Of a stretch of DNA of 32,000 nucleotides, positions 3,991 through 16,430 are shown one piece after another. Source of the DNA: Promethearchaeota archaeon (GTDB taxonomy: Archaea; Asgardarchaeota; Hermodarchaeia; Hermodarchaeales; Hermodarchaeaceae); contig JBHLMI010000006.1 in assembly GCA_048938295.1 (NCBI GenBank), positions 69,761-101,760 of the forward strand. The letters run 5' to 3'. The stretch's first letter is position 1, and every line of letters starts with the position of its first letter. The notes beneath the pieces were generated by a model. It saw only the letters and a list, made by a program, of their open reading frames with translations, was not told the DNA's origin and searched no databases. The position numbers and the translations under genes are program-made.

Positions 3991-4776
3991 ATGCAACTAA
4001 TATCTGGACAGGCCATTTACGTGGTCTTACTTCGAGAACTGAAACGGTTCTGGCGAGCAAAAGCCCGAATTATTGCTTCCATTGCTCAAAGCTTCTTCTT
4101 CCTTCTCATTCTCGGATTTGGAATAGGAGGGTTATTTGGAGGAGCGCTTGGAGGTAGCTACCTTACGTTTATTGCACCCGGAATCATTGCAATGTCATTA
4201 CTATTTGCTTCGGTATTTTCTGGAGTTTCGGTTATTTTTGATCGACAATTTGGTTTCTTTAAAGAGATGCTAGTTGCCCCTGTGAGCCGTACCAGCATCA
4301 TAACGGGTAAAATCTTTGGAGGGGCAATCACCGCAGCAATCCAAGGTCTATTAATTTTAGTCGTTTCGACCATCCTTGGAGCATTCGTGCTTGATCCCCG
4401 ATTTGCTCTTGGGATTTTTGCAGGAATTGGAGTGATGCTGTTGATTACTGCCGGATTTGTCGGACTCGGAGTAGCAATTGGTTCAGCGCTTACAGATTTT
4501 CATGCCTTCCAATTGATTTCGACTTTTATCATTTGGCCCCTTTTCATGCTCTCAGGTGTCTTCTTTCCAATTGATACTGCACCTTTACCTCTTCAAATAG
4601 CGATGCTCGTTGATCCCCTTTTCTACGGAGTAGAACTTCTTCGCTTCTGCCTTGTTGGATATATTACTCCCATATTGGGTCCGTTTGGTCCACTCCTTGC
4701 TTTGACAGTACTAGGTGGATTTTCACTTCTAATGATTGCAATTGGAACTTACCTGTTTTCTCGAGCTGAAGCTTAA
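3991..4776 (+). CDS. ABC-2 type (DrrB-like) exporter permease
   Basis: LRELKRFWR, FIAPGIIAM, DRQFGFFKEMLVAPVSR...GK, LSGVFFP, DPLFYGVE; about 6 TM helices; follows the ATPase. Confidence 0.92.
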   Translation: MQLISGQAIYVVLLRELKRFWRAKARIIASIAQSFFFLLILGFGIGGLFGGALGGSYLTFIAPGIIAMSLLFASVFSGVSVIFDRQFGFFKEMLVAPVSRTSIITGKIFGGAITAAIQGLLILVVSTILGAFVLDPRFALGIFAGIGVMLLITAGFVGLGVAIGSALTDFHAFQLISTFIIWPLFMLSGVFFPIDTAPLPLQIAMLVDPLFYGVELLRFCLVGYITPILGPFGPLLALTVLGGFSLLMIAIGTYLFSRAEA

Positions 4777-5309
4777 ATATCAAGAAACTCGGATGCAAGC
4801 AAATCATAAAGTAGAAGATCGTGGTAGGCACCTTCGAAGAATGAGGCTTGGCGGCGGCGTCCGCCGTGCTGAAACCCTATTTTTTCATAGACTCGCTGCG
4901 CACGCTTGTTGATATCGTGTGTGAATAATACGATTCGATGGAGGTTAAGTTGCTTGAAACCAAAGTTCAGAAGGAGCCGTAGAGCTTCAGTTCCATATCC
5001 TTTGTCGTAGTTCTGATCTTCGTAAATTACAATCATGAGCTCGGCTTTATGATTGATTTTACTGATGTCCATCAATCCACAAACACCGAGTAGTTGTTGC
5101 GTTTTAGTGTGCTCGATTGCAAAGAGGTAGTGTTGGTGGTTTTTCCTTGCCTCCCATGTTTTTTTGATCCATTGTTTCGTGTCTTCGAGTGAGGATGGAT
5201 AAGGCATATCTAAGAACCGTCGCACTTCTAGCCAATTGAATTGTTGGTTAATTGTCTCTACATCGGTTAACTCAAGGCTGCGAAGCAGTACCTGTTTGCC
5301 TTCAAACAT
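4773..5309 (-). CDS. GNAT N-acetyltransferase, RimJ/RimL family (paralog 2)
   Basis: Start at ATG 5309 (MFEGKQVLLRSLE); HKAELMIVI...YDKGYGTEA, LNLHRI, NKRAQRVYEKIGF. Overlaps the stop of the upstream paralog by 8 nt. Confidence 0.88.
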   Translation of the reverse strand: MFEGKQVLLRSLELTDVETINQQFNWLEVRRFLDMPYPSSLEDTKQWIKKTWEARKNHQHYLFAIEHTKTQQLLGVCGLMDISKINHKAELMIVIYEDQNYDKGYGTEALRLLLNFGFKQLNLHRIVLFTHDINKRAQRVYEKIGFQHGGRRRQASFFEGAYHDLLLYDLLASEFLDI

Positions 5310-5883
5310 TTTTTGTTTCCTCCTGAATGAGGGGGTAATGTGGAGGATGGCGGTCGCGGAATTCCTCATCGAGGATGTCCATGATGAGCACGTCCTTGTA
5401 TTTTCCATCTTGGAAGATAGCTTTGCGATGACGTGCTACGTGTTGAAACCCGACTTTCTCGTAGGCTCGGATGGCCCGGGGATTATCCTCATTGACGAGG
5501 AGGAAGATGCTGTGGAGGTTGAGGAAATTGAATCCGTACCCGAGCAGAAGATTGATTGCCTCCTGACCATAGCCTTTGGCCCAATATTGTTTATTCCAAA
5601 TTGCGATGCCAAGTTCAGCTGACCGGTTGATCCATGAGAGTGTAAATAGGCTGCATGATCCTATGAGGTGTTTTGGTTGCTTGGTTTCGATGCCGAAAAC
5701 ATGTGCGTTCCCCTGTCGACGCTGGTCCCAAGTGTTGCGTATCCATTGTTCCTCCTCTTCTTTTGATAGGGGAATTGTAAGACCGAGAAAACGTCGCAGT
5801 TCAACATCGTTCCAGTGTTTGAGTATCTCATCGACATCTGTTAGTTCTAATCCTCGAAGGATGATTTTCTCTCCAGTTATCAA
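5302..5883 (-). CDS. GNAT N-acetyltransferase, RimJ/RimL family (paralog 1)
   Basis: IILRGLE, RSAELGIAI...YWAKGYGQEA, LNLHSI, NPRAIRAYEKVGF; TTG start. Confidence 0.88.
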   Translation of the reverse strand: MITGEKIILRGLELTDVDEILKHWNDVELRRFLGLTIPLSKEEEEQWIRNTWDQRRQGNAHVFGIETKQPKHLIGSCSLFTLSWINRSAELGIAIWNKQYWAKGYGQEAINLLLGYGFNFLNLHSIFLLVNEDNPRAIRAYEKVGFQHVARHRKAIFQDGKYKDVLIMDILDEEFRDRHPPHYPLIQEETKNV

Positions 5884-5964: not shown

Positions 5965-6492
5965 CTAAATACTCCAGCCCATCATTTGCCGAAAGGCATT
6001 TCCAGTAAAGCTCAGGACAAGAATGAAGGGGGTGGCTAAAACTAAGAATAGGAAGAGACTTTGCAGGTATAACAAAGTGAAACTTACAAGGACTTCGTTG
6101 AATATAGCTGTCCAGTTGGGATTCAACCCCCAAATCCATTGCCAACCGGGAATCAAAGTAGTGGCATAAGCTGGATTAATGATAAGTATTCCCAGTATGA
6201 CGAAGTAGTTGACATTAAGAAATAGGAAAGGACCTAAGAATCCAGCAACTACGACCTCCTTCGTTTCGAAGGTGACCAAGAATCCGATAACAAAAGCCAT
6301 GCCAGCAAAAACAAAAAGATAGAAGAAGAAATCCATGGCTGCGGTGGGAGAAAGGGGATTGATAAGATAAGTGAATTTAGTTCCAAAGAGGAAGAAATGA
6401 AGCCAATCGATGCCGATGAATCCCAAACACATGATTCCTGTAATTGCTAATACGTGTCGCCATCTGATGCGGGGTCGAATGTCTTGTGCCAT
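5965..6492 (-). CDS. Hypothetical multi-pass membrane protein
   Basis: 175-aa ORF with about 4 hydrophobic, Phe-rich segments; no family recognised. Confidence 0.7.
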   Translation of the reverse strand: MAQDIRPRIRWRHVLAITGIMCLGFIGIDWLHFFLFGTKFTYLINPLSPTAAMDFFFYLFVFAGMAFVIGFLVTFETKEVVVAGFLGPFLFLNVNYFVILGILIINPAYATTLIPGWQWIWGLNPNWTAIFNEVLVSFTLLYLQSLFLFLVLATPFILVLSFTGNAFRQMMGWSI

Positions 6493-6622: not shown

Positions 6623-7141
6623 TCATAGAGGCAACAAGTTGGCTCCGAAATAGACTACAACGCGAGATAATTCTAAGCGACCGTTATTAGTTTCAGCAAG
6701 AAATGTCGTCTGCACAAGCGGTTCTAACAGAAGATACCAATTCCAGTTACCACTTGATTCTGCGGCTAGGAACAGGGATTGATCAGACTCGGTTAATGAG
6801 TACTCCCAGGTGAAATCACGAGTTTCGCCCGGAATAATTATTGTACGACCTCCTTTGAAACCAAAACCATAGTAGAGTTGTTCGCCATTGAGAAGGATAC
6901 GGGTATCGGTGTGAATGAGATCCACGGAGAGGGTTAGCCCAGGATTATGGATTCGACCACTGATCTGCACTCTTACATACATGCCACTTGTCGCATTACT
7001 AATCACATTGACTGATGTGATTTCATAGGTAAAAGTGAGAGAGCGATAAGTGTCAGCTTGATAAAAAGCAGATAGGCCTAACAGGACACTTGAGGCTAAA
7101 ATGGCTGAAAGGAAAATAAGCGTACGTGTCCGACGAATCAT
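6623..7141 (-). CDS. Membrane-anchored/secreted beta-rich protein (possibly LEA_2/WHy-like)
   Basis: N-terminal hydrophobic anchor, then beta-strand pattern with RIHNP...TRILLNGEQL...IIPGETRDFTWEY reminiscent of WHy/LEA_2 domains. The family call is tentative. Confidence 0.6.
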   Translation of the reverse strand: MIRRTRTLIFLSAILASSVLLGLSAFYQADTYRSLTFTYEITSVNVISNATSGMYVRVQISGRIHNPGLTLSVDLIHTDTRILLNGEQLYYGFGFKGGRTIIIPGETRDFTWEYSLTESDQSLFLAAESSGNWNWYLLLEPLVQTTFLAETNNGRLELSRVVVYFGANLLPL

Positions 7142-7293
7142 ATCAGACCAAGACCTTTTTTCACGGCAGAGCGTTATCTTCGTATTAAGTCAACGGTGAC
7201 GGCAATTTCTACCTTGTCTTCTTCGGGCTACGTGTAAAGAATATTTAAGGTTGGAGTTTGTAGGAGTATCTTACTGGTTGAGGGTGATTTTGA

Positions 7294-8697
7294 GTGGTAC
7301 GATTTCGAAAATCCCAGTTATATACGGTGTGGCTGGTTCTCGTTATCATCCTATTCGTTGTTAATTGGATTGGCCTGAGAGACCGTTATGTAACGAGTAC
7401 ATATCCCACTGATAATGCAACACAAATTGCACTTGGAGATCTCGATGTCTCAAAACCCGGATTTGAATTAGCTTACTTAACTCCATCACGAGTCATCCTA
7501 GTTGGTGGACTCACTGCATCCCCATGGCAAGAGACAGTCTTTCAAAATCCAGACTGGGAAACGAATCCCCTCATAGCCCTAAGCGTGGGCGATTATTTTG
7601 ATGAATACAAAGGAGACGAAATCGCAGTCCTTACACAGAATGGAATACTACATTTGAACTTCCGCGGAGCTGCCATCTGGCATTCTGAAGAAATCGGTAA
7701 TATTCCTGATGGATATCCGGTGTGGACAACTAACCATATGTTTGCTGGCCAATTCATCACGGCATCAAATTCCATGGAAATAGCCATTATTGGTCAATAT
7801 TATAATGTGTCCACAACGATTTCAACGGGTCGCATCTATGTCGCTAGCAGATTCAACAGTACAACCTGGACTATTGACCAAGTCCATACTGAACCGACCA
7901 TTTTACTCACTGGCACAGCTGGTGATGTGGATACCTCCAATAGCGGCGATGAATTGATTGCGGGCGGAATAGATACAGGAGTCTTCTATTTACGTTACGA
8001 TGATGGAGCCTGGACGATATCCCGACTCATGGAATGGGTTGGGGTAACACGTTCAATTGCAATTGGAGATTTTATGTTTCAACCTGCAGGGAACGAAATC
8101 GCCATCGTAAGGAATCATGATATTCGAGTCTTCTATAGGCAATTGGGAGAATGGATATCGACGACTATCTGGTCGGAGAATCATTTGCAAATCGGAATCG
8201 AGTCTGTGTTCATCGGGGACATCGACCCATTTAACCCTGGATATGAGGTGCTGGGTGTTGGTACTGTAAATGAAAATAACAAACCAGTACTAATTGTCCA
8301 GAAGTATATGTTAAGTTGGGTGCCTAGCATTCTCTGGAACCTAGTTGAATCACCTACAAGTGTAATTGCAGGGAATTTTGATTTCAACCACATGGGAACA
8401 GAGATTCTCATCACCAATTCACCTCAAACTTCTGTGTTGTCTGTCCCAACAGCTACTGACCGAAGTCTACGTGCAGGAGTAGCTGTCCTGATACCAGCAA
8501 TCCTACTATTTCCATCAACCTTTCTTCTCTTCGCACTAGCGGAGTATTTTGGAAAAGTTACTGATGAACGTCGTCGCGCTCGTGCCTTAGAAATGATTTC
8601 CAAAGGGTATGTTCGGTGCCCTGTTTGCAGACGCTTTATTCCCAAGGATAAAGCGGAAGCTCATAAACGGTGGCATAGAACCCAACAATTCCGTTAA
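7294..8697 (+). CDS. FG-GAP-like 7-bladed beta-propeller membrane protein with C-terminal C2H2 zinc finger
   Basis: N-terminal anchor (aa ~9-27). Seven repeats: LGDLDVSKPGFEL, VGDYFDEYKGDEI, AGQFITASNSMEI, AGDVDTSNSGDEL, IGDFMFQPAGNEI, IGDIDPFNPGYEV, AGNFDFNHMGTEI. TM helix at aa ~395-418, then CPVC-x11-H-x3-H. Confidence 0.8.
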   Translation: MVRFRKSQLYTVWLVLVIILFVVNWIGLRDRYVTSTYPTDNATQIALGDLDVSKPGFELAYLTPSRVILVGGLTASPWQETVFQNPDWETNPLIALSVGDYFDEYKGDEIAVLTQNGILHLNFRGAAIWHSEEIGNIPDGYPVWTTNHMFAGQFITASNSMEIAIIGQYYNVSTTISTGRIYVASRFNSTTWTIDQVHTEPTILLTGTAGDVDTSNSGDELIAGGIDTGVFYLRYDDGAWTISRLMEWVGVTRSIAIGDFMFQPAGNEIAIVRNHDIRVFYRQLGEWISTTIWSENHLQIGIESVFIGDIDPFNPGYEVLGVGTVNENNKPVLIVQKYMLSWVPSILWNLVESPTSVIAGNFDFNHMGTEILITNSPQTSVLSVPTATDRSLRAGVAVLIPAILLFPSTFLLFALAEYFGKVTDERRRARALEMISKGYVRCPVCRRFIPKDKAEAHKRWHRTQQFR

Positions 8698-10727: not shown

Positions 10728-12428
10728 ATGAGGACAATATTCCGCTCTTCAGGGCTCACGCTTTTCACGATTTTATTATGTGTTCAGCTTCTCCTCTCTC
10801 CATTTGTTTCTTCCTCATATCAGAACCTATCCTTGATAGCACATGAACCAACTAACTCAGATCATTTTCAATTTCAGGCAACAGATGTTAGGTTTGGTCA
10901 AAACCGTCGTGTTAATACTGGAGGTTCAGGGTACTCCGAGCAAGTAGAACCCACATTAACGATTCTTAGTAATGGTTGCATCCTTATAGGATGGAAAGAA
11001 GCGGCCACTTCAACTGGACCAGGACTCCGGGTAGGCTTTGCTTATTCGGAAGATGATGGCTATTCATTCAGCAATAACACTCTTATGGCCACATTGGGTG
11101 GCGGTTCGCAATCCGATCCCTGGCTTGTAAAAGACCAGAATGATAACGCTTATTTTACCTTCCTTGAATATGGCGGTTCTTCCGAGGGTATGGGTGTGGC
11201 GAAGACGATTGATGGTGGGTTGACATGGCAACCACCAACACAAGCTAGTGATACGCCCGGAGAGCTTGATGACAAAGAAACCATGTGTGTCGATTCCAAT
11301 GGGAATCTCTATTTGGTCTGGGATTTCATCTACTACAGTGGTGGTGCAGCCTTTCTGAAATTTACAAGATCTACAAATAGTGGTGCCTCCTTTGATCCCA
11401 CTACAACACTTGGCCTTTGGGAAGAACGGGGTGGTATTCCCTATATCACCTGTTCAGCGAATAACACGCTCTATATGACAACATATGACTCAAGTGAAGC
11501 GTATCCAGATATGATTTATCTTTCAAAATCAATCGATTTAGGCAATACTTGGACAACACCTGCTAATGTGAACACCTGGGGTTACCCGAGCATTGCATTA
11601 ATCACTGTATGTGCCACTGATAGCAATAATGATGTGTACATCTGTTTTGCTGCAGGTTCCATTACTGATTATGAAGTCTATGTGACCAAATCAATAGATG
11701 GTGGTTTCTCTTGGTCCACACCGGTACAGATCAATGATAAGAGCACGAATATGCAACGAATGGTCGAGATGCACATTGATCCCGAAGATAATATTCATGT
11801 TGCCTGGTTAGATGGCAGTCTAGGTGAATGGAATATCTTCTACAGTTACTCAACTGACGGAGGAGCCACATTCTCTAATGATATTAAAATCACAAGTGAA
11901 GGCACACCATTCTCATACACACGCCCTGGTGACTACTTCACATTGCGCTCTGGTCCCAATGGTCGACTCTACATTGTTTGGACCGATGGACGAGGCCAGG
12001 ACCAGGATATCTACTTTGCAAAGCAGGATCTTTTAGCGCCACAAATCAATCATACACCGCCAGTGTTTATATTGATACAAACACCTTTCAACGTCGAGGT
12101 TCAGGCATCAGATGATGACGCTATCGAACGGGTTGAATTTCATTATCGCATCGGAGACATAGGAACCTGGAATACTCAGCTTTTGACTCGTATCTCTTCA
12201 ACATCCTATCAAGGAGAGATTGATGCTGATCGAATGATAGGATCTACGATTGCGTACTATTTTACCGTTAATGATTATGCCCAACGACAGACATTTCTTC
12301 CCGCTTCAGGATATTTCATTATTCCTCTACTACCGGTATCACCAACGATGATCATCATAATTGTGGCCTCTATCATCATTATCACAATAGTTGTAATCTT
12401 TGCTATATGGTATCTTCGCCGACCATAA
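10728..12428 (+). CDS. Surface-anchored BNR/Asp-box (sialidase-fold) propeller protein with Ig-like domain and C-terminal TM
   Basis: Signal peptide. Six Asp-box motifs: YSEDDGYSF, KTIDGGLTW, RSTNSGASF, KSIDLGNTW, KSIDGGFSW, YSTDGGATF. Ig-like APQINHTP...VEFHYR...YYFTVND, then a hydrophobic anchor ending WYLRRP. Confidence 0.85.
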   Translation: MRTIFRSSGLTLFTILLCVQLLLSPFVSSSYQNLSLIAHEPTNSDHFQFQATDVRFGQNRRVNTGGSGYSEQVEPTLTILSNGCILIGWKEAATSTGPGLRVGFAYSEDDGYSFSNNTLMATLGGGSQSDPWLVKDQNDNAYFTFLEYGGSSEGMGVAKTIDGGLTWQPPTQASDTPGELDDKETMCVDSNGNLYLVWDFIYYSGGAAFLKFTRSTNSGASFDPTTTLGLWEERGGIPYITCSANNTLYMTTYDSSEAYPDMIYLSKSIDLGNTWTTPANVNTWGYPSIALITVCATDSNNDVYICFAAGSITDYEVYVTKSIDGGFSWSTPVQINDKSTNMQRMVEMHIDPEDNIHVAWLDGSLGEWNIFYSYSTDGGATFSNDIKITSEGTPFSYTRPGDYFTLRSGPNGRLYIVWTDGRGQDQDIYFAKQDLLAPQINHTPPVFILIQTPFNVEVQASDDDAIERVEFHYRIGDIGTWNTQLLTRISSTSYQGEIDADRMIGSTIAYYFTVNDYAQRQTFLPASGYFIIPLLPVSPTMIIIIVASIIIITIVVIFAIWYLRRP

Positions 12429-12946: not shown

Positions 12947-14347
12947 ATGGCGGGAGTGATCGACCACCCACTGATTGAACTCGCCGATCAGATCGTGGCG
13001 AGAACACAACCAGTGGAGGAGAGAGCATCGATTCAACGTAGATTATACAATATCATTCTTTACATCAAACGGGTTGAAAACAAAGAATTAACTCAAAAAG
13101 AAAGAGAATTTCTGGCACATCGCAAACTCGGTATAACAGCAATGGCTGCCTCCCAAGAGCTTGCGGATGGCTTAAGAGACCGGATTCGAATAATTAACGA
13201 GTATCACATTGAGTCCGCTTTTCGGATTTATGAAATGCTTGAATATGGCTTCGAGATTACCTCGCCACGCTCACTTTCAAAAAAGCAGGTATTGATTCTT
13301 CAAGAATTGGTAAAGGATCCAATGATGAAAGTGTCCCAGCTGAGCACACGGTTAAACAAATCCCGTCATACTGTTACCAAGATTTTAAATGAATTGGAAG
13401 AGCATTTCGCACTTAGCCGCCTTTATGTAGCAAATCGAGGGAAACTGAAGCTATCGTCTTTCATTCTGTTTTTTCAAACTAAGTCTTACCAGCATTCAAA
13501 AGCACTTGAATCTTGGGTTCGAAAATCGCCACCGTTATTTGGGACCACCCTTGTCTTTGATGTGACATTTCGTAATGGATATCTCGGATATGCTATTCCA
13601 TCCCAACATCGAGCATACCGGCTGTTTACTGACCGTCTAAGACGTTTAGAACAGACCTATTTCAAACGAACTCAACTCCAAGAATTAACAGAACATTTTT
13701 GGAACATCCGTTTTGACTATTATGACTCGGGCCAAGGACAGTGGTTAATTCCCCCTGTATTGAAAGACCCTTCAGAACTTCCAAGGATAGGGCAAACAGA
13801 GAATTCAGGAATCACCTATTGCACTCATGCTGACTTGGGAGAACCTGGGGATTTTGACTGTATTGATCTTCTTATCACCAAAGCAAAAATCAAAGCACAG
13901 GACACCATCGCAAATATCCAAGCTTATCTCACTCAATACGGTTACCAACTCCCATATCCGGTGGTATCACAGCGCATCAATCGACTAACACAGGAAGGAA
14001 TACTTTTTCCACATCTCTATTTCAGCGGAGCGGGAATCGAAGAATTCGTTGGACTGGGGATTACCTGTCAACCAAAAACCCGATACCAACTCCAGATACT
14101 CGCATCATATTTTCCGCTTTCTTTCACATATTTGTCCAAACAAGGAATTACGATTTTTATCAAACTCCCGATGGGATGGAGAGACTTCTTTTCCAAATTC
14201 GTTCATGACCTACCCTCAGTCTATGACATTGGAGAAGTAATGGTGGTTCATCAGGAACGCAATTTTGGTAGCGGTCTCAAAGATGAAGTATATGTTCGTT
14301 GGAATGAAAAACGGCAGTATTGGGAATTTACCGACGACGAGATCTAG
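12947..14347 (+). CDS. Duplicated Lrp/AsnC-like (HTH + RAM-like, twice) transcriptional regulator with N-terminal helical extension, paralog A
   Basis: HTH LSKKQVLILQELVKDPMMKVSQLSTRLNKSRHTVTKILNEL; NIRFDYYDSGQGQW; second degenerate HTH (FDCIDLLI...VVSQRINRLTQEGIL); terminal WNEKRQYWEF. Confidence 0.7.
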   Translation: MAGVIDHPLIELADQIVARTQPVEERASIQRRLYNIILYIKRVENKELTQKEREFLAHRKLGITAMAASQELADGLRDRIRIINEYHIESAFRIYEMLEYGFEITSPRSLSKKQVLILQELVKDPMMKVSQLSTRLNKSRHTVTKILNELEEHFALSRLYVANRGKLKLSSFILFFQTKSYQHSKALESWVRKSPPLFGTTLVFDVTFRNGYLGYAIPSQHRAYRLFTDRLRRLEQTYFKRTQLQELTEHFWNIRFDYYDSGQGQWLIPPVLKDPSELPRIGQTENSGITYCTHADLGEPGDFDCIDLLITKAKIKAQDTIANIQAYLTQYGYQLPYPVVSQRINRLTQEGILFPHLYFSGAGIEEFVGLGITCQPKTRYQLQILASYFPLSFTYLSKQGITIFIKLPMGWRDFFSKFVHDLPSVYDIGEVMVVHQERNFGSGLKDEVYVRWNEKRQYWEFTDDEI

Positions 14348-15026: not shown

Positions 15027-16430
15027 ATGGACATCTATCAAGATAGACTTCTGAAACAAGGTCAACAAATCCTTAAAGGGATCGCCCCAGGAAATGATGC
15101 CACTCAGCTTCAGAAGCTTTTGAACCAACTTATCCATTACCAACTTCGAGTACGTGGGATAACATCAATTGGCATACCTTCGGATTCACCCTTTTTTAAC
15201 TCTCAAACAACATTACCCTCCCTCGACTTAGCTGCAGAGATTGATTACCGATTAGCTCTATTAGCCTCCTATCAGTTATCGAAGCCTAAACGAATCGTCA
15301 AAACCCTCATGGCAGGATTACAAATAGAAAAGCCCCCACAATTTACCCAATTACAAATCAGACTTCTAACGGAAATGCACCAAGACTCAAGAGTAGGCAC
15401 AGTAAACCTTTCTAAAACGTTACATGTTAGCCCAAGGACAATTAATCAGCAGAAACATGAATTGCTGTCAGCTTTTGGAGCACGAACAGCAGCGGTAATT
15501 GATCCCCATCGATTTGGGCTAGTCCATGTTGGAGTATGGTTCCGGGCAAATTCCCCTGAAGCATCACAAAGCATCGAACACTGGATTTTCCAGGAAGCAC
15601 ACCTCAACGGAGCTCTCCCCTTCCTGCATGGATTTGGATTTGATGTCAACCAACAAAATGGGCTCCTGATGCTATATTTACCAGACGAAAGGCGAGTACT
15701 AACACAATTCAACCAAACCCTGGAAAAACTAGCAGATTCTCATTTAGAAAGTTATGAGATAATTCCCTTCCAAGGCTTTTTCAGCAACGTGAATTTCAAC
15801 ACTTACGATTATGTTTCCCAGCAATGGCAGATAACCTCCGATTTACGAACAGAAGGCACCCGTCGTTTCATCGAAGAGTACGGCCCCCAGTTTCCACCCC
15901 CACGGGGCAGCTTGTACCAAAAGAAACCGTTGGCATTCACTCAAGCTGATTGGATACTCGCCCTCAGCATCTGCGAAGGATTAGTGGACCGGAAGGACCG
16001 ACAACACATTATTGCTTCACACGGATTCCCTTTTGCAAACAAAACTGGGTGGGCTCATGAGCATCGTTTAGAAAACGCTCAGGCATATATTCGGTACCTT
16101 ACCTTCAGCAACTTACTCTTCGCCGAGATCATTTGTATTATCGTAGTATGTGAAACTTCCATGGTTGACTTCTTTCACCAGTTTTCCACCCAATTTGCCA
16201 TGAGCCGGCTTATGCCTACACCGGAGGGAGTTGTGGTTTTCATTGGGATCCCCACCCAGGCTTCAAGCTTCATAAACCAACTCATCCACACGCTCATCGA
16301 TATTCCGGGTCTTCGTAATATCGACTTTTTACGGCTAAAGCGCAACCTCCCAAGCACACCCCCTATACATACTTTTCACCTTTGGAATCCCAGCCCTAAG
16401 CGCTGGAGCTACCCAAAATACGATGATTAA
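15027..16430 (+). CDS. Duplicated Lrp/AsnC-like regulator, paralog B
   Basis: Same size (467 vs 466 aa) and layout as 12947-14347: FTQLQIRLLTEMHQDSRVGTVNLSKTLHVSPRTINQ, NVNFNTYDYVSQQW, FTQADWILAL, terminal WNPSPKRWSY. Confidence 0.7.
   Translation: MDIYQDRLLKQGQQILKGIAPGNDATQLQKLLNQLIHYQLRVRGITSIGIPSDSPFFNSQTTLPSLDLAAEIDYRLALLASYQLSKPKRIVKTLMAGLQIEKPPQFTQLQIRLLTEMHQDSRVGTVNLSKTLHVSPRTINQQKHELLSAFGARTAAVIDPHRFGLVHVGVWFRANSPEASQSIEHWIFQEAHLNGALPFLHGFGFDVNQQNGLLMLYLPDERRVLTQFNQTLEKLADSHLESYEIIPFQGFFSNVNFNTYDYVSQQWQITSDLRTEGTRRFIEEYGPQFPPPRGSLYQKKPLAFTQADWILALSICEGLVDRKDRQHIIASHGFPFANKTGWAHEHRLENAQAYIRYLTFSNLLFAEIICIIVVCETSMVDFFHQFSTQFAMSRLMPTPEGVVVFIGIPTQASSFINQLIHTLIDIPGLRNIDFLRLKRNLPSTPPIHTFHLWNPSPKRWSYPKYDD

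Follow-up and report, generated by a model that had tools for sequence, protein, structure and literature searches.

A gene in a 32,000-nt stretch of DNA from a Promethearchaeota archaeon of the GTDB family Hermodarchaeaceae (assembly GCA_048938295.1, contig JBHLMI010000006.1, positions 69,761 to 101,760; hereafter the window) is predicted to encode a seven-bladed β-propeller exposed outside the cell, held in the membrane by a helix at each end and followed in the cytoplasm by a single zinc finger with the spacing and shape of a UBZ finger. The open reading frame (ORF) lies at 7294-8697 on the plus strand, starts with GTG and is open throughout (467 aa plus a stop codon). It is a real, conserved gene of one small Asgard archaeal group, present in one copy per genome according to a family-profile search, and a word-indexed search of 5.8 billion proteins recovered 28 homologues of 445-472 aa (46-87% identity, E down to 5e-279). 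The combination of propeller, transmembrane (TM) helices and zinc finger has not been described before, both of its parts being known. An initial annotation made from the sequence alone had known no such architecture from the literature, and no described Pfam or NCBIfam family covers the protein; scans of the whole protein against both collections returned nothing at E≤10.

A seven-bladed propeller is predicted between two membrane helices

The initial annotation had proposed seven FG-GAP-like repeats between two membrane anchors, and both motif counts and hydropathy bear this out. Seven repeats of about 50 aa, each with a loop of the form G-D-x-D-x4-G-x-E, lie between the two TM helices (TM1 and TM2). 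The strict motif G[DN]x6GxE is present six times (residues 48, 99, 210, 258, 308 and 360), against a mean of 0.012 and a maximum of one in 20,000 shuffled sequences, while the relaxed motif G[DNQ]x8E adds residue 152 and thus occurs seven times where 0.23 would be expected, with a spacing of 48-58 aa. A hidden Markov model built from blades 4-6 alone recovered blades 1, 2, 3 and 7 in register, albeit weakly (2-10 bits, the best shuffled match scoring 3.4 bits).

The AlphaFold2 model was built from a 24-sequence alignment and reached a mean predicted local distance difference test score (pLDDT) of 86 and a predicted template modelling score of 0.77. It consists of a helix at residues 6-27, 28 strands over residues 32-384 and one long helix at residues 387-436. 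The strands form seven blades of four, so that the ectodomain (7387..8445, plus strand, as are all features of the gene) is modelled as a seven-bladed propeller of the VCBS/FG-GAP class, predicted to be extracellular. In each blade the acidic loop falls between strands A and B. This A-B loop spans G48-E58 in blade 1 (GDLDVSKPGFE; 7435..7467), G99-E109 in blade 2 (7588..7620; E109 invariant), G152-E162 in blade 3 (7747..7779; degenerate, beginning GQ and without Asp), G210-E220 in blade 4 (7921..7953; E220 invariant), G258-E268 in blade 5 (8065..8097; G258 and E268 invariant), G308-E318 in blade 6 (GDIDPFNPGYE; 8215..8247; the best conserved of the loops) and G360-E370 in blade 7 (8371..8403; E370 invariant).

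Structure comparisons consistently point to the same class. The best Foldseek matches in the PDB were aldos-2-ulose dehydratase (AUDH), ITFG2 of the KICSTOR complex and CRTAC1; among Swiss-Prot models AUDH came first and ITFG2 second. The best AlphaFold Database clusters consisted of 'VCBS repeat-containing' and 'FG-GAP repeat' proteins (E down to 1.4e-12). With VIA-align against 48,161 chains, AUDH scored highest (propeller 4a7k, Z 29.4, root-mean-square deviation (rmsd) 4.0 Å, 345 aligned residues), followed by BBS2 (Z 28.6), ITFG2 (Z 27.8) and the integrins αIIb, α5 and αV (Z 27.3-27.7), the WD40 propellers lying at about 25; identity to the integrin, ITFG and BBS2 propellers is about 10% and their margin over WD40 propellers about 3 Z units. 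In the ESM Atlas, all 10 of the 10 rows retrieved carry FG-GAP, FG-GAP_3, AUDH or BBS propeller families; a feature search there reached a score of only 0.78 and is a lead at best. The proposed seven-bladed FG-GAP propeller is thus supported by these comparisons, integrin α heads being among the best matches.

The whole protein has no direct match to Pfam FG-GAP (PF01839) or FG-GAP_3 (PF13517) at E≤10. A sequence bridge was nevertheless found by phmmer, through proteins P0040 (E 2.4e-23) and P0051 (E 7.6e-14), which themselves match FG-GAP_3 with 59.9 and 40.4 bits, respectively, and which in pairwise alignments have the same GDxDPxxPGxE loop and downstream Trp. The VCBS supercluster, which includes AUDH, the PVL lectins and the integrins, is characterized by an Asp-rich A-B loop and by Gly and Trp in the C-D loop (PMC8023676). 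In the present family the invariant residues W129, W192, W240 and W287 open strand D, and in blades 4 and 5 a Gly stands two residues before the Trp.

Both ends of the protein are predicted to be cytoplasmic

Hydropathy analysis reveals exactly two segments of membrane length, residues 9-28 and 394-416. The first (TM1; 7318..7377) coincides with the N-terminal helix of the model, contains the invariant residues L9, W13, L16, L20, N24, W25, G27 and L28, and is preceded by a putatively cytoplasmic N-tail, MVRFRKSQ (residues 1-8; 7294..7317), with three basic and no acidic residues, in which M1, V2, R5 and K6 are nearly invariant. As TM1 is better conserved than the propeller and retains N24, W25 and G27 throughout, it probably stays in place as a signal anchor and is not removed as a signal peptide. 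The second segment (TM2; 8473..8541) lies within the continuous model helix 387-436; its P407 is invariant family-wide, and P401 is invariant in closer relatives and present in at least 90% of the family.

The C-terminal tail of 51 residues has 15 basic and 6 acidic residues, whereas the segments flanking the propeller are near neutral. Following the positive-inside rule, both ends would be cytoplasmic and the propeller outside, in a two-helix hairpin; this agrees with the initial proposal that the finger lies inside the cell. Two further observations fit this topology. Conserved N-x-S/T sequons (positions 116, 171, 189 and 237; 14-18 of 24 sequences) are all confined to the propeller, as would be expected if the ectodomain were N-glycosylated, and the only two cysteines of the protein are those of the finger, a Cys-ligated zinc site being in keeping with a cytoplasmic location.

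The order of strands suggests how the propeller may be placed on the membrane. Counted along the sequence, the acidic loop follows the second strand and precedes the third, so the strand next to TM1 would be strand D of blade 7, closing the ring in the manner known as 'velcro'. Both membrane helices would then leave a single blade, on the face formed by the A-B and C-D loops, and the propeller would rest flat against the membrane, its acidic A-B-loop face turned towards it. The usual ligand face, formed by the D-A and B-C loops, would accordingly point away from the cell.

The predicted cytoplasmic tail ends in a UBZ-shaped zinc finger

After TM2, the models continue with a basic helix (residues 417-438; 8542..8607) with an R-R-R-x-x-A-L-E-M core. 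In closer relatives R426, R428, L432, E433, M434 and G438 are invariant; family-wide, G438 is the only invariant residue and R426, R427 and M434 are kept in at least 90%. The C-terminal residues 439-467 (8608..8694) are predicted, from their conservation and from a model of the tail alone, to form a ββα zinc finger with CCHH ligands. As first annotated, the finger stretch CPVCRRFIPKDKAEAHKRWH lies at 8617-8676 (residues 442-461) and has the spacing C-x2-C-x11-H-x3-H. More than 30 relatives, some of them only 23% identical, retain without exception the ligands C442, C445, H457 and H461 and their x2/x11/x3 spacing, so that the anticipated conservation of the Cys and His residues held in all homologues examined. 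In closer relatives the tail hardly varies up to its very end (...WHRTQQFR).

Modelled on its own, the tail forms a helix followed by a ββα unit with a pLDDT of 86. Its finger matched first the UBZ of DNA polymerase η in VIA-align against the same 48,161 chains (3wup_A, rmsd 0.8 Å over all 31 residues, with a Z of 4.6 that is low in absolute terms, as is unavoidable for 31 residues), and the RAD18 UBZ came third (Z 3.5). The top Foldseek rows were likewise UBZ fingers, those of TAX1BP1, WRNIP1 and Pol η (TM-score by target 0.84, rmsd 0.7 Å, 29 columns), with E-values all above 1, as expected for about 30 residues. Classical C2H2 fingers align only with a one-residue gap, because of the x11 spacing. 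These comparisons support a finger that is UBZ-spaced and UBZ-shaped, and the likeness to the UBZ3 class that had been noticed in the sequence extends to the modelled geometry.

Sequence profiles match the finger below threshold in every case. Across 24 members of the family, zf_UBZ was matched in 18 (lowest E 0.0028), the S26e knuckle in 18, zf-C2H2_4 in 14 (E 0.016 or weaker), WRNIP1_ubi in 10 and zf-C2H2 in two (E 0.09 or weaker). The zf_UBZ score (PF18439) is 14.6 bits against a cut-off of 25.6, that of zf-WRNIP1_ubi (PF18279) 13.9 against 26.4. Compared with PDB sequences, the finger matched the eS26 knuckle (E 0.008), Xfin (E 0.038) and WRNIP1 (E 0.13), all sub-threshold.

The first zinc knuckle (residues 439-453; 8608-8652), V-R-C-P-V-C-R-R-F-I-P-K-D-K-A, closely resembles the first knuckle of the ribosomal protein eS26, for example V-R-C-T-N-C-A-R-C-V-P-K-D-K-A. 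We considered kinship on the basis of this shared pattern (V-R-C-x-x-C-x-R-x-[VI]-P-K-D-K-A) and rejected it, as the similarity is local and covers the first knuckle alone. eS26 completes its zinc site with a second CxxC, unlike the propeller protein, which does so with two His in a helix. The resemblance is thus probably a local convergence.

In Pol η, D652 is essential for ubiquitin binding, and the order H-M-D(652)-Y-H can be read from a mutagenesis primer (PMC2965212). The equivalent position here, two residues after the first His, is R459, in agreement with the Arg reported by the initial annotation; the family has R, K, E, L, N or A in this place and Asp in no member. No second copy of the tail was found in the archaeon's own genome (best other match E 0.06), nor was the tail found in another architecture in the 5.8-billion-protein set within the length limits of the search.

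Distribution and conservation of the family

The 28 close homologues are all unnamed or annotated as 'hypothetical', and the organism names present are those of Promethearchaeota or 'Candidatus Hodarchaeota' metagenome-assembled genomes. The same architecture was sought in Asgard genomes, as had been proposed, and the family profile matched 15 of 400 sampled genomes of the phylum, all of them in the window's own GTDB family; within this family it is present in the window's own genome and in 14 of the 18 others, spanning two genera. More remote members came from phmmer, run exhaustively against 1.8 billion representatives: full-length relatives with 33-38% identity (P0032-P0036), and a distant clade (P0047 and P0062, plus P0081) with 23-27%. 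Members of this clade preserve the full architecture, and their finger has exactly the same spacing (CP[IL]C ... H-I-x-L-H). Among proteins without the finger, those closest to the clade carry Thermoplasmata names, and the architecture may therefore predate Asgard archaea or extend beyond them.

Conservation is unevenly distributed along the protein. The tail and both TM helices are more conserved than the propeller, and the finger is the best conserved part: mean conservation is 0.70 for the finger, 0.68 for both the cytoplasmic helix and TM2, 0.64 for TM1 and 0.48-0.57 for the propeller strands and loops.

Gene and genomic context

The start of the coding sequence is conserved, since the sequences of relatives also begin with MVRFRK. 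A putative TATA-like box (atatttaa, 7241..7248, plus strand) is located 46 nt upstream of the start codon and a putative Shine-Dalgarno-like sequence (GAGGGTGA, 7280..7287, plus strand) 6 nt upstream of it, both read from the sequence. The 152-bp spacer to the divergent upstream gene (6623-7141, minus strand) implies a promoter of its own, and since the downstream nitronate monooxygenase (NMO)-like gene is convergent (8-bp gap), the gene is monocistronic. A search of sequencing runs retrieved DNA from sediment and soil metagenomes only, without any RNA run.

The gene order is PfkB, PadR, ABC ATPase, ABC-2 permease, one or more GNAT genes, a gene for a 175-aa multi-pass membrane protein and the propeller gene, followed by the convergent NMO-family gene and then RidA. 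Relatives as distant as 33% identity preserve this order, and the gene of the most distant member sits among purine-synthesis genes: that of P0062 (L008 7001-8386) has purS/purL/purQ/purM, FTR and POR around it. No protease, kinase or regulator coupled to the propeller gene was found among its neighbours. We rejected the neighbourhood as a functional clue, since the syntenic block consists of unrelated housekeeping genes.

The 175-aa membrane protein (5965-6492, minus strand) has no Pfam family; its gene lies upstream of that of the propeller protein, in the opposite orientation, and in the window a 172-aa gene separates the two. The pairing persists in relatives down to 33% identity, where the two divergent genes directly adjoin (L001, L003, L009 and the P0033 contig), and is missing in the distant member P0062. 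The two proteins may act together, or the arrangement may reflect mere synteny. The intervening gene (6623-7141, minus strand) encodes an N-terminally anchored protein without family match, is the immediate divergent neighbour in the window and is present only in closer relatives (L001, L003), L004 having a 286-aa plus-strand gene instead. Two tandem GNAT acetyltransferase genes (PF13302) occupy 4773-5883 on the minus strand. As listed, these ORFs share about 100 bp; since the corresponding genes of relatives encode 177-197 aa, translation of the 211-aa ORF probably begins at an internal Met.

A second surface propeller protein, of 566 aa and without a zinc finger, is encoded 2 kb downstream (10728-12428, plus strand). 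A hydrophobic segment lies in its N-terminal part, its repeats are BNR/sialidase-like (PF13088, E 2.7e-9), and its C-terminal membrane helix ends in ...YLRRP. Two further plus-strand ORFs, 12947-14347 and 15027-16430, were considered as paralogues because of their length (466 and 467 aa, near that of the propeller protein) and turned out to be unrelated. The former matches winged helix-turn-helix (HTH) families (HTH_24, MarR_2), the latter has no Pfam match, and both recur in the syntenic loci of relatives.

Another contig of the genome (G000 contig 53; L010 1120-2354, running into L011) carries a compact eukaryote-like ubiquitin operon, with genes for a RING-H2 protein (1120-1446), a ubiquitin-like protein of 81 aa with a terminal GG (1450-1695; PF00240, 45.7 bits) and an E2/UBC-like protein (1893-2354). 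It also comprises a 358-aa frame with a weak second ubiquitin-fold match, taken as putatively E1-like.

Discussion

We give even chances to the interpretation that the protein is a surface binding propeller whose UBZ-shaped adaptor finger couples it, across the membrane, to a partner in the cytoplasm. In such a scheme, the basic N-tail and the signal-anchor TM1 would lead the chain out of the cell, and the propeller would, like its lectin, integrin and AUDH relatives, bind an external ligand, for example a glycan, a protein or a metal ion. The chain would then re-enter through the proline-containing TM2 and continue as a basic cytoplasmic helix of about 20 residues, and the rigid unit of TM2, helix and finger would serve as a small adaptor that holds, by protein-protein contact, one conserved partner in the cytoplasm, whose existence and nature we infer. 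The protein would thus be a transmembrane link of minimal design, for adhesion or for sensing. Fingers of the UBZ type are modules that bind proteins. A precedent may be seen in the archaeal membrane-associated zinc-finger protein CdpC, which binds cytoplasmic FtsZ1 (bioRxiv 10.64898/2026.07.16.738847).

Each part of this architecture has known counterparts from which it also departs. With the VCBS/FG-GAP_3 propellers (PF13517 clan; AUDH 4a7k, PVL lectin) the protein shares seven four-stranded blades, an acidic A-B loop, Gly and Trp near the C-D turn and an extracytoplasmic location, which is predicted here. Their loop is DxDxDG, that of the present protein D-x-D-x4-G-x-E, and the described VCBS members are neither held in the membrane at both ends nor equipped with a cytoplasmic zinc finger. 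The overall order of TM1, extracytoplasmic ligand-binding domain, TM2 and cytoplasmic module is that of two-TM bacterial and archaeal receptors. Unlike in these sensors, the output consists only of a 50-residue helix and finger, without kinase, HAMP, GGDEF, HTH or a nearby gene for a cognate regulator.

The initial description of the protein as integrin-α-like holds for the propeller fold and fails for the rest of the molecule. The seven-bladed FG-GAP-class fold is shared with the integrin α head (αIIb 7la4_A, Z 27.7, rmsd 3.3 Å, 329 aligned residues, 11% identity). A propeller outside the membrane with a short cytoplasmic tail is common to integrins and to the membrane protein LINKIN (ITFG1; PMC4275582), the topology being predicted in our case. 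In contrast to integrin α, with its thigh and calf-1/calf-2 legs, the present protein has no leg domains, its last strand ending at residue 384 and the TM2 helix starting at 387. The integrin tail motif GFFKR is missing, the sequence after TM2 being EYFGKVTDERRR..., and there is no I-domain; moreover, the predicted two-helix hairpin differs from the type I topology of integrins. Integrin α also pairs obligatorily with a β subunit (βI/VWA domain), of which there is no sign here, although no search aimed at such a partner was made. Given these differences, together with the different loop motif and the low identity, we rejected an identity as integrin α.

The finger shares with the UBZ3/UBZ4 fingers of Pol η, RAD18 and WRNIP1 the spacing C-x2-C-x11-H-x3-[HC], the ββα fold, two hydrophobic residues and a Pro after the second Cys, and an aromatic residue before the last ligand. 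Unlike them, it stays below the Pfam cut-offs, lacks the ubiquitin-binding Asp, is strongly basic and forms the C-terminus of an archaeal membrane protein. The UBZ fingers known to us are those of soluble eukaryotic DNA-repair and autophagy proteins. The CCHH ligands and the ββα fold are also those of classical C2H2 fingers (PF00096), and the weak matches to Xfin and ZBTB fingers fall in this group; the present finger differs in having x11 instead of x12, in being single and without linker, and in lacking an in-register conserved Phe/Leu core pattern.

Several observations weigh against the interpretation of a binding propeller coupled to an adaptor finger. The acidic loops are one residue longer than the proven calcium-binding DxDxDG and end in Glu, and blades 3 and 5 lack the second Asp; binding of calcium or another metal by the A-B loops is thus plausible and unproven. 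The structural matches of the finger are low in absolute score, and a very basic finger and helix would fit the binding of nucleic acid or acidic lipid equally well. TM1 could be a cleaved signal peptide, since many relatives consist of a signal plus a C-terminal anchor, and the protein would then be of type I. Finally, the neighbourhood gives no hint of function, and its conserved order looks like lineage synteny.

Unlikely, in our view, is that no signalling takes place and that the protein is a doubly anchored surface lectin, adhesin or envelope component, its tail being a stop-transfer or topology determinant, a lipid-head-group clamp or an oligomerization element. Many relatives are indeed surface propellers with an N-terminal signal and a C-terminal anchor and no finger, and the tail, besides being highly basic, is attached to no other protein in the genome or the large database, which suggests that it is not a reusable signalling module. 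However, an anchor alone would need neither four invariant zinc ligands at a fixed spacing nor a near-invariant ...HRTQQFR terminus, and the tail is the best conserved part of the protein.

Less probable is a membrane-tethered DNA- or RNA-binding protein, acting either in place as a one-component sensor like ToxR or CadC or after release by intramembrane proteolysis. Basic residues make up 15 of the 51 in the tail, the CCHH ββα fold is that of DNA-binding C2H2 fingers, and the weak matches include zf-C2H2_4 (14 of 24 members), Xfin, ZBTB fingers and the rRNA-contacting eS26 knuckle. Helix-breaking prolines in TM segments are common in substrates of intramembrane proteases, and the conserved P401 and P407 of TM2 are the sole hint of such release. 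On the other hand, there is only one finger, with x11 spacing and no TGEKP linker, and the helix positions that would read bases are Pro, Asp, Lys and Ala, the Ala being invariant in closer relatives. The finger also begins only about 20 helical residues from the membrane, and neither a protease gene nor a regulated operon is present in the gene neighbourhood.

We regard it as improbable that the finger is a true UBZ that binds the archaeon's ubiquitin-like protein and ties the propeller to the Asgard ubiquitin/ESCRT machinery, for example in the sorting or turnover of the receptor or its neighbours. The spacing is that of the Pol η UBZ and the backbone nearly identical, UBZ fingers head both structure lists, the sub-threshold zf_UBZ and WRNIP1_ubi matches recur across the family (18 and 10 of the 24 members), and the genome does possess an operon of RING, ubiquitin-like, E2 and E1-like genes, on another contig. 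Yet the essential helix Asp is replaced in every member, all Pfam scores remain under the gathering cut-off, the helix surface is strongly basic, the protein stops six residues past the last His, leaving short the helix extension of UBZ fingers, and the propeller gene is unlinked to the ubiquitin operon. A complex prediction of the tail (residues 424-467) and zinc with the 81-aa ubiquitin-like protein, run without controls, gave no answer (score 0.00) and speaks neither for nor against binding. The link to ubiquitin-like signalling suggested in the initial annotation is not supported, given the family-wide absence of the Asp and the low zf_UBZ score, and canonical ubiquitin binding by the finger is weakened as a proposal. 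Very improbable, lastly, is an archaeal integrin-style link in which the propeller would engage a matrix, a partner cell or a glycan and the finger would recruit ubiquitin/ESCRT or the actin cytoskeleton.

Prokaryotic cell surfaces commonly carry VCBS/FG-GAP propellers, and ββα fingers are common as small adaptors; what is new here is their predicted fusion across a membrane. Descriptions of UBZ-shaped fingers have hitherto come from soluble eukaryotic proteins, so the present family would widen the known range of this finger geometry. Asgard archaea of this kind, which judging by the names of homologous records appears to be a Hodarchaeota-type group, possess eukaryote-like ubiquitin, ESCRT and cytoskeletal systems, and how the cell surface communicates with such systems is at issue. 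If the integrin-style reading were true, it would mean that a device coupling the outside of the cell to the inside is older than eukaryotic adhesion receptors. The protein is small, single-copy and strongly conserved, with its strongest constraint in a cytoplasmic tail of 50 residues, and may thus offer a tractable handle on this communication.

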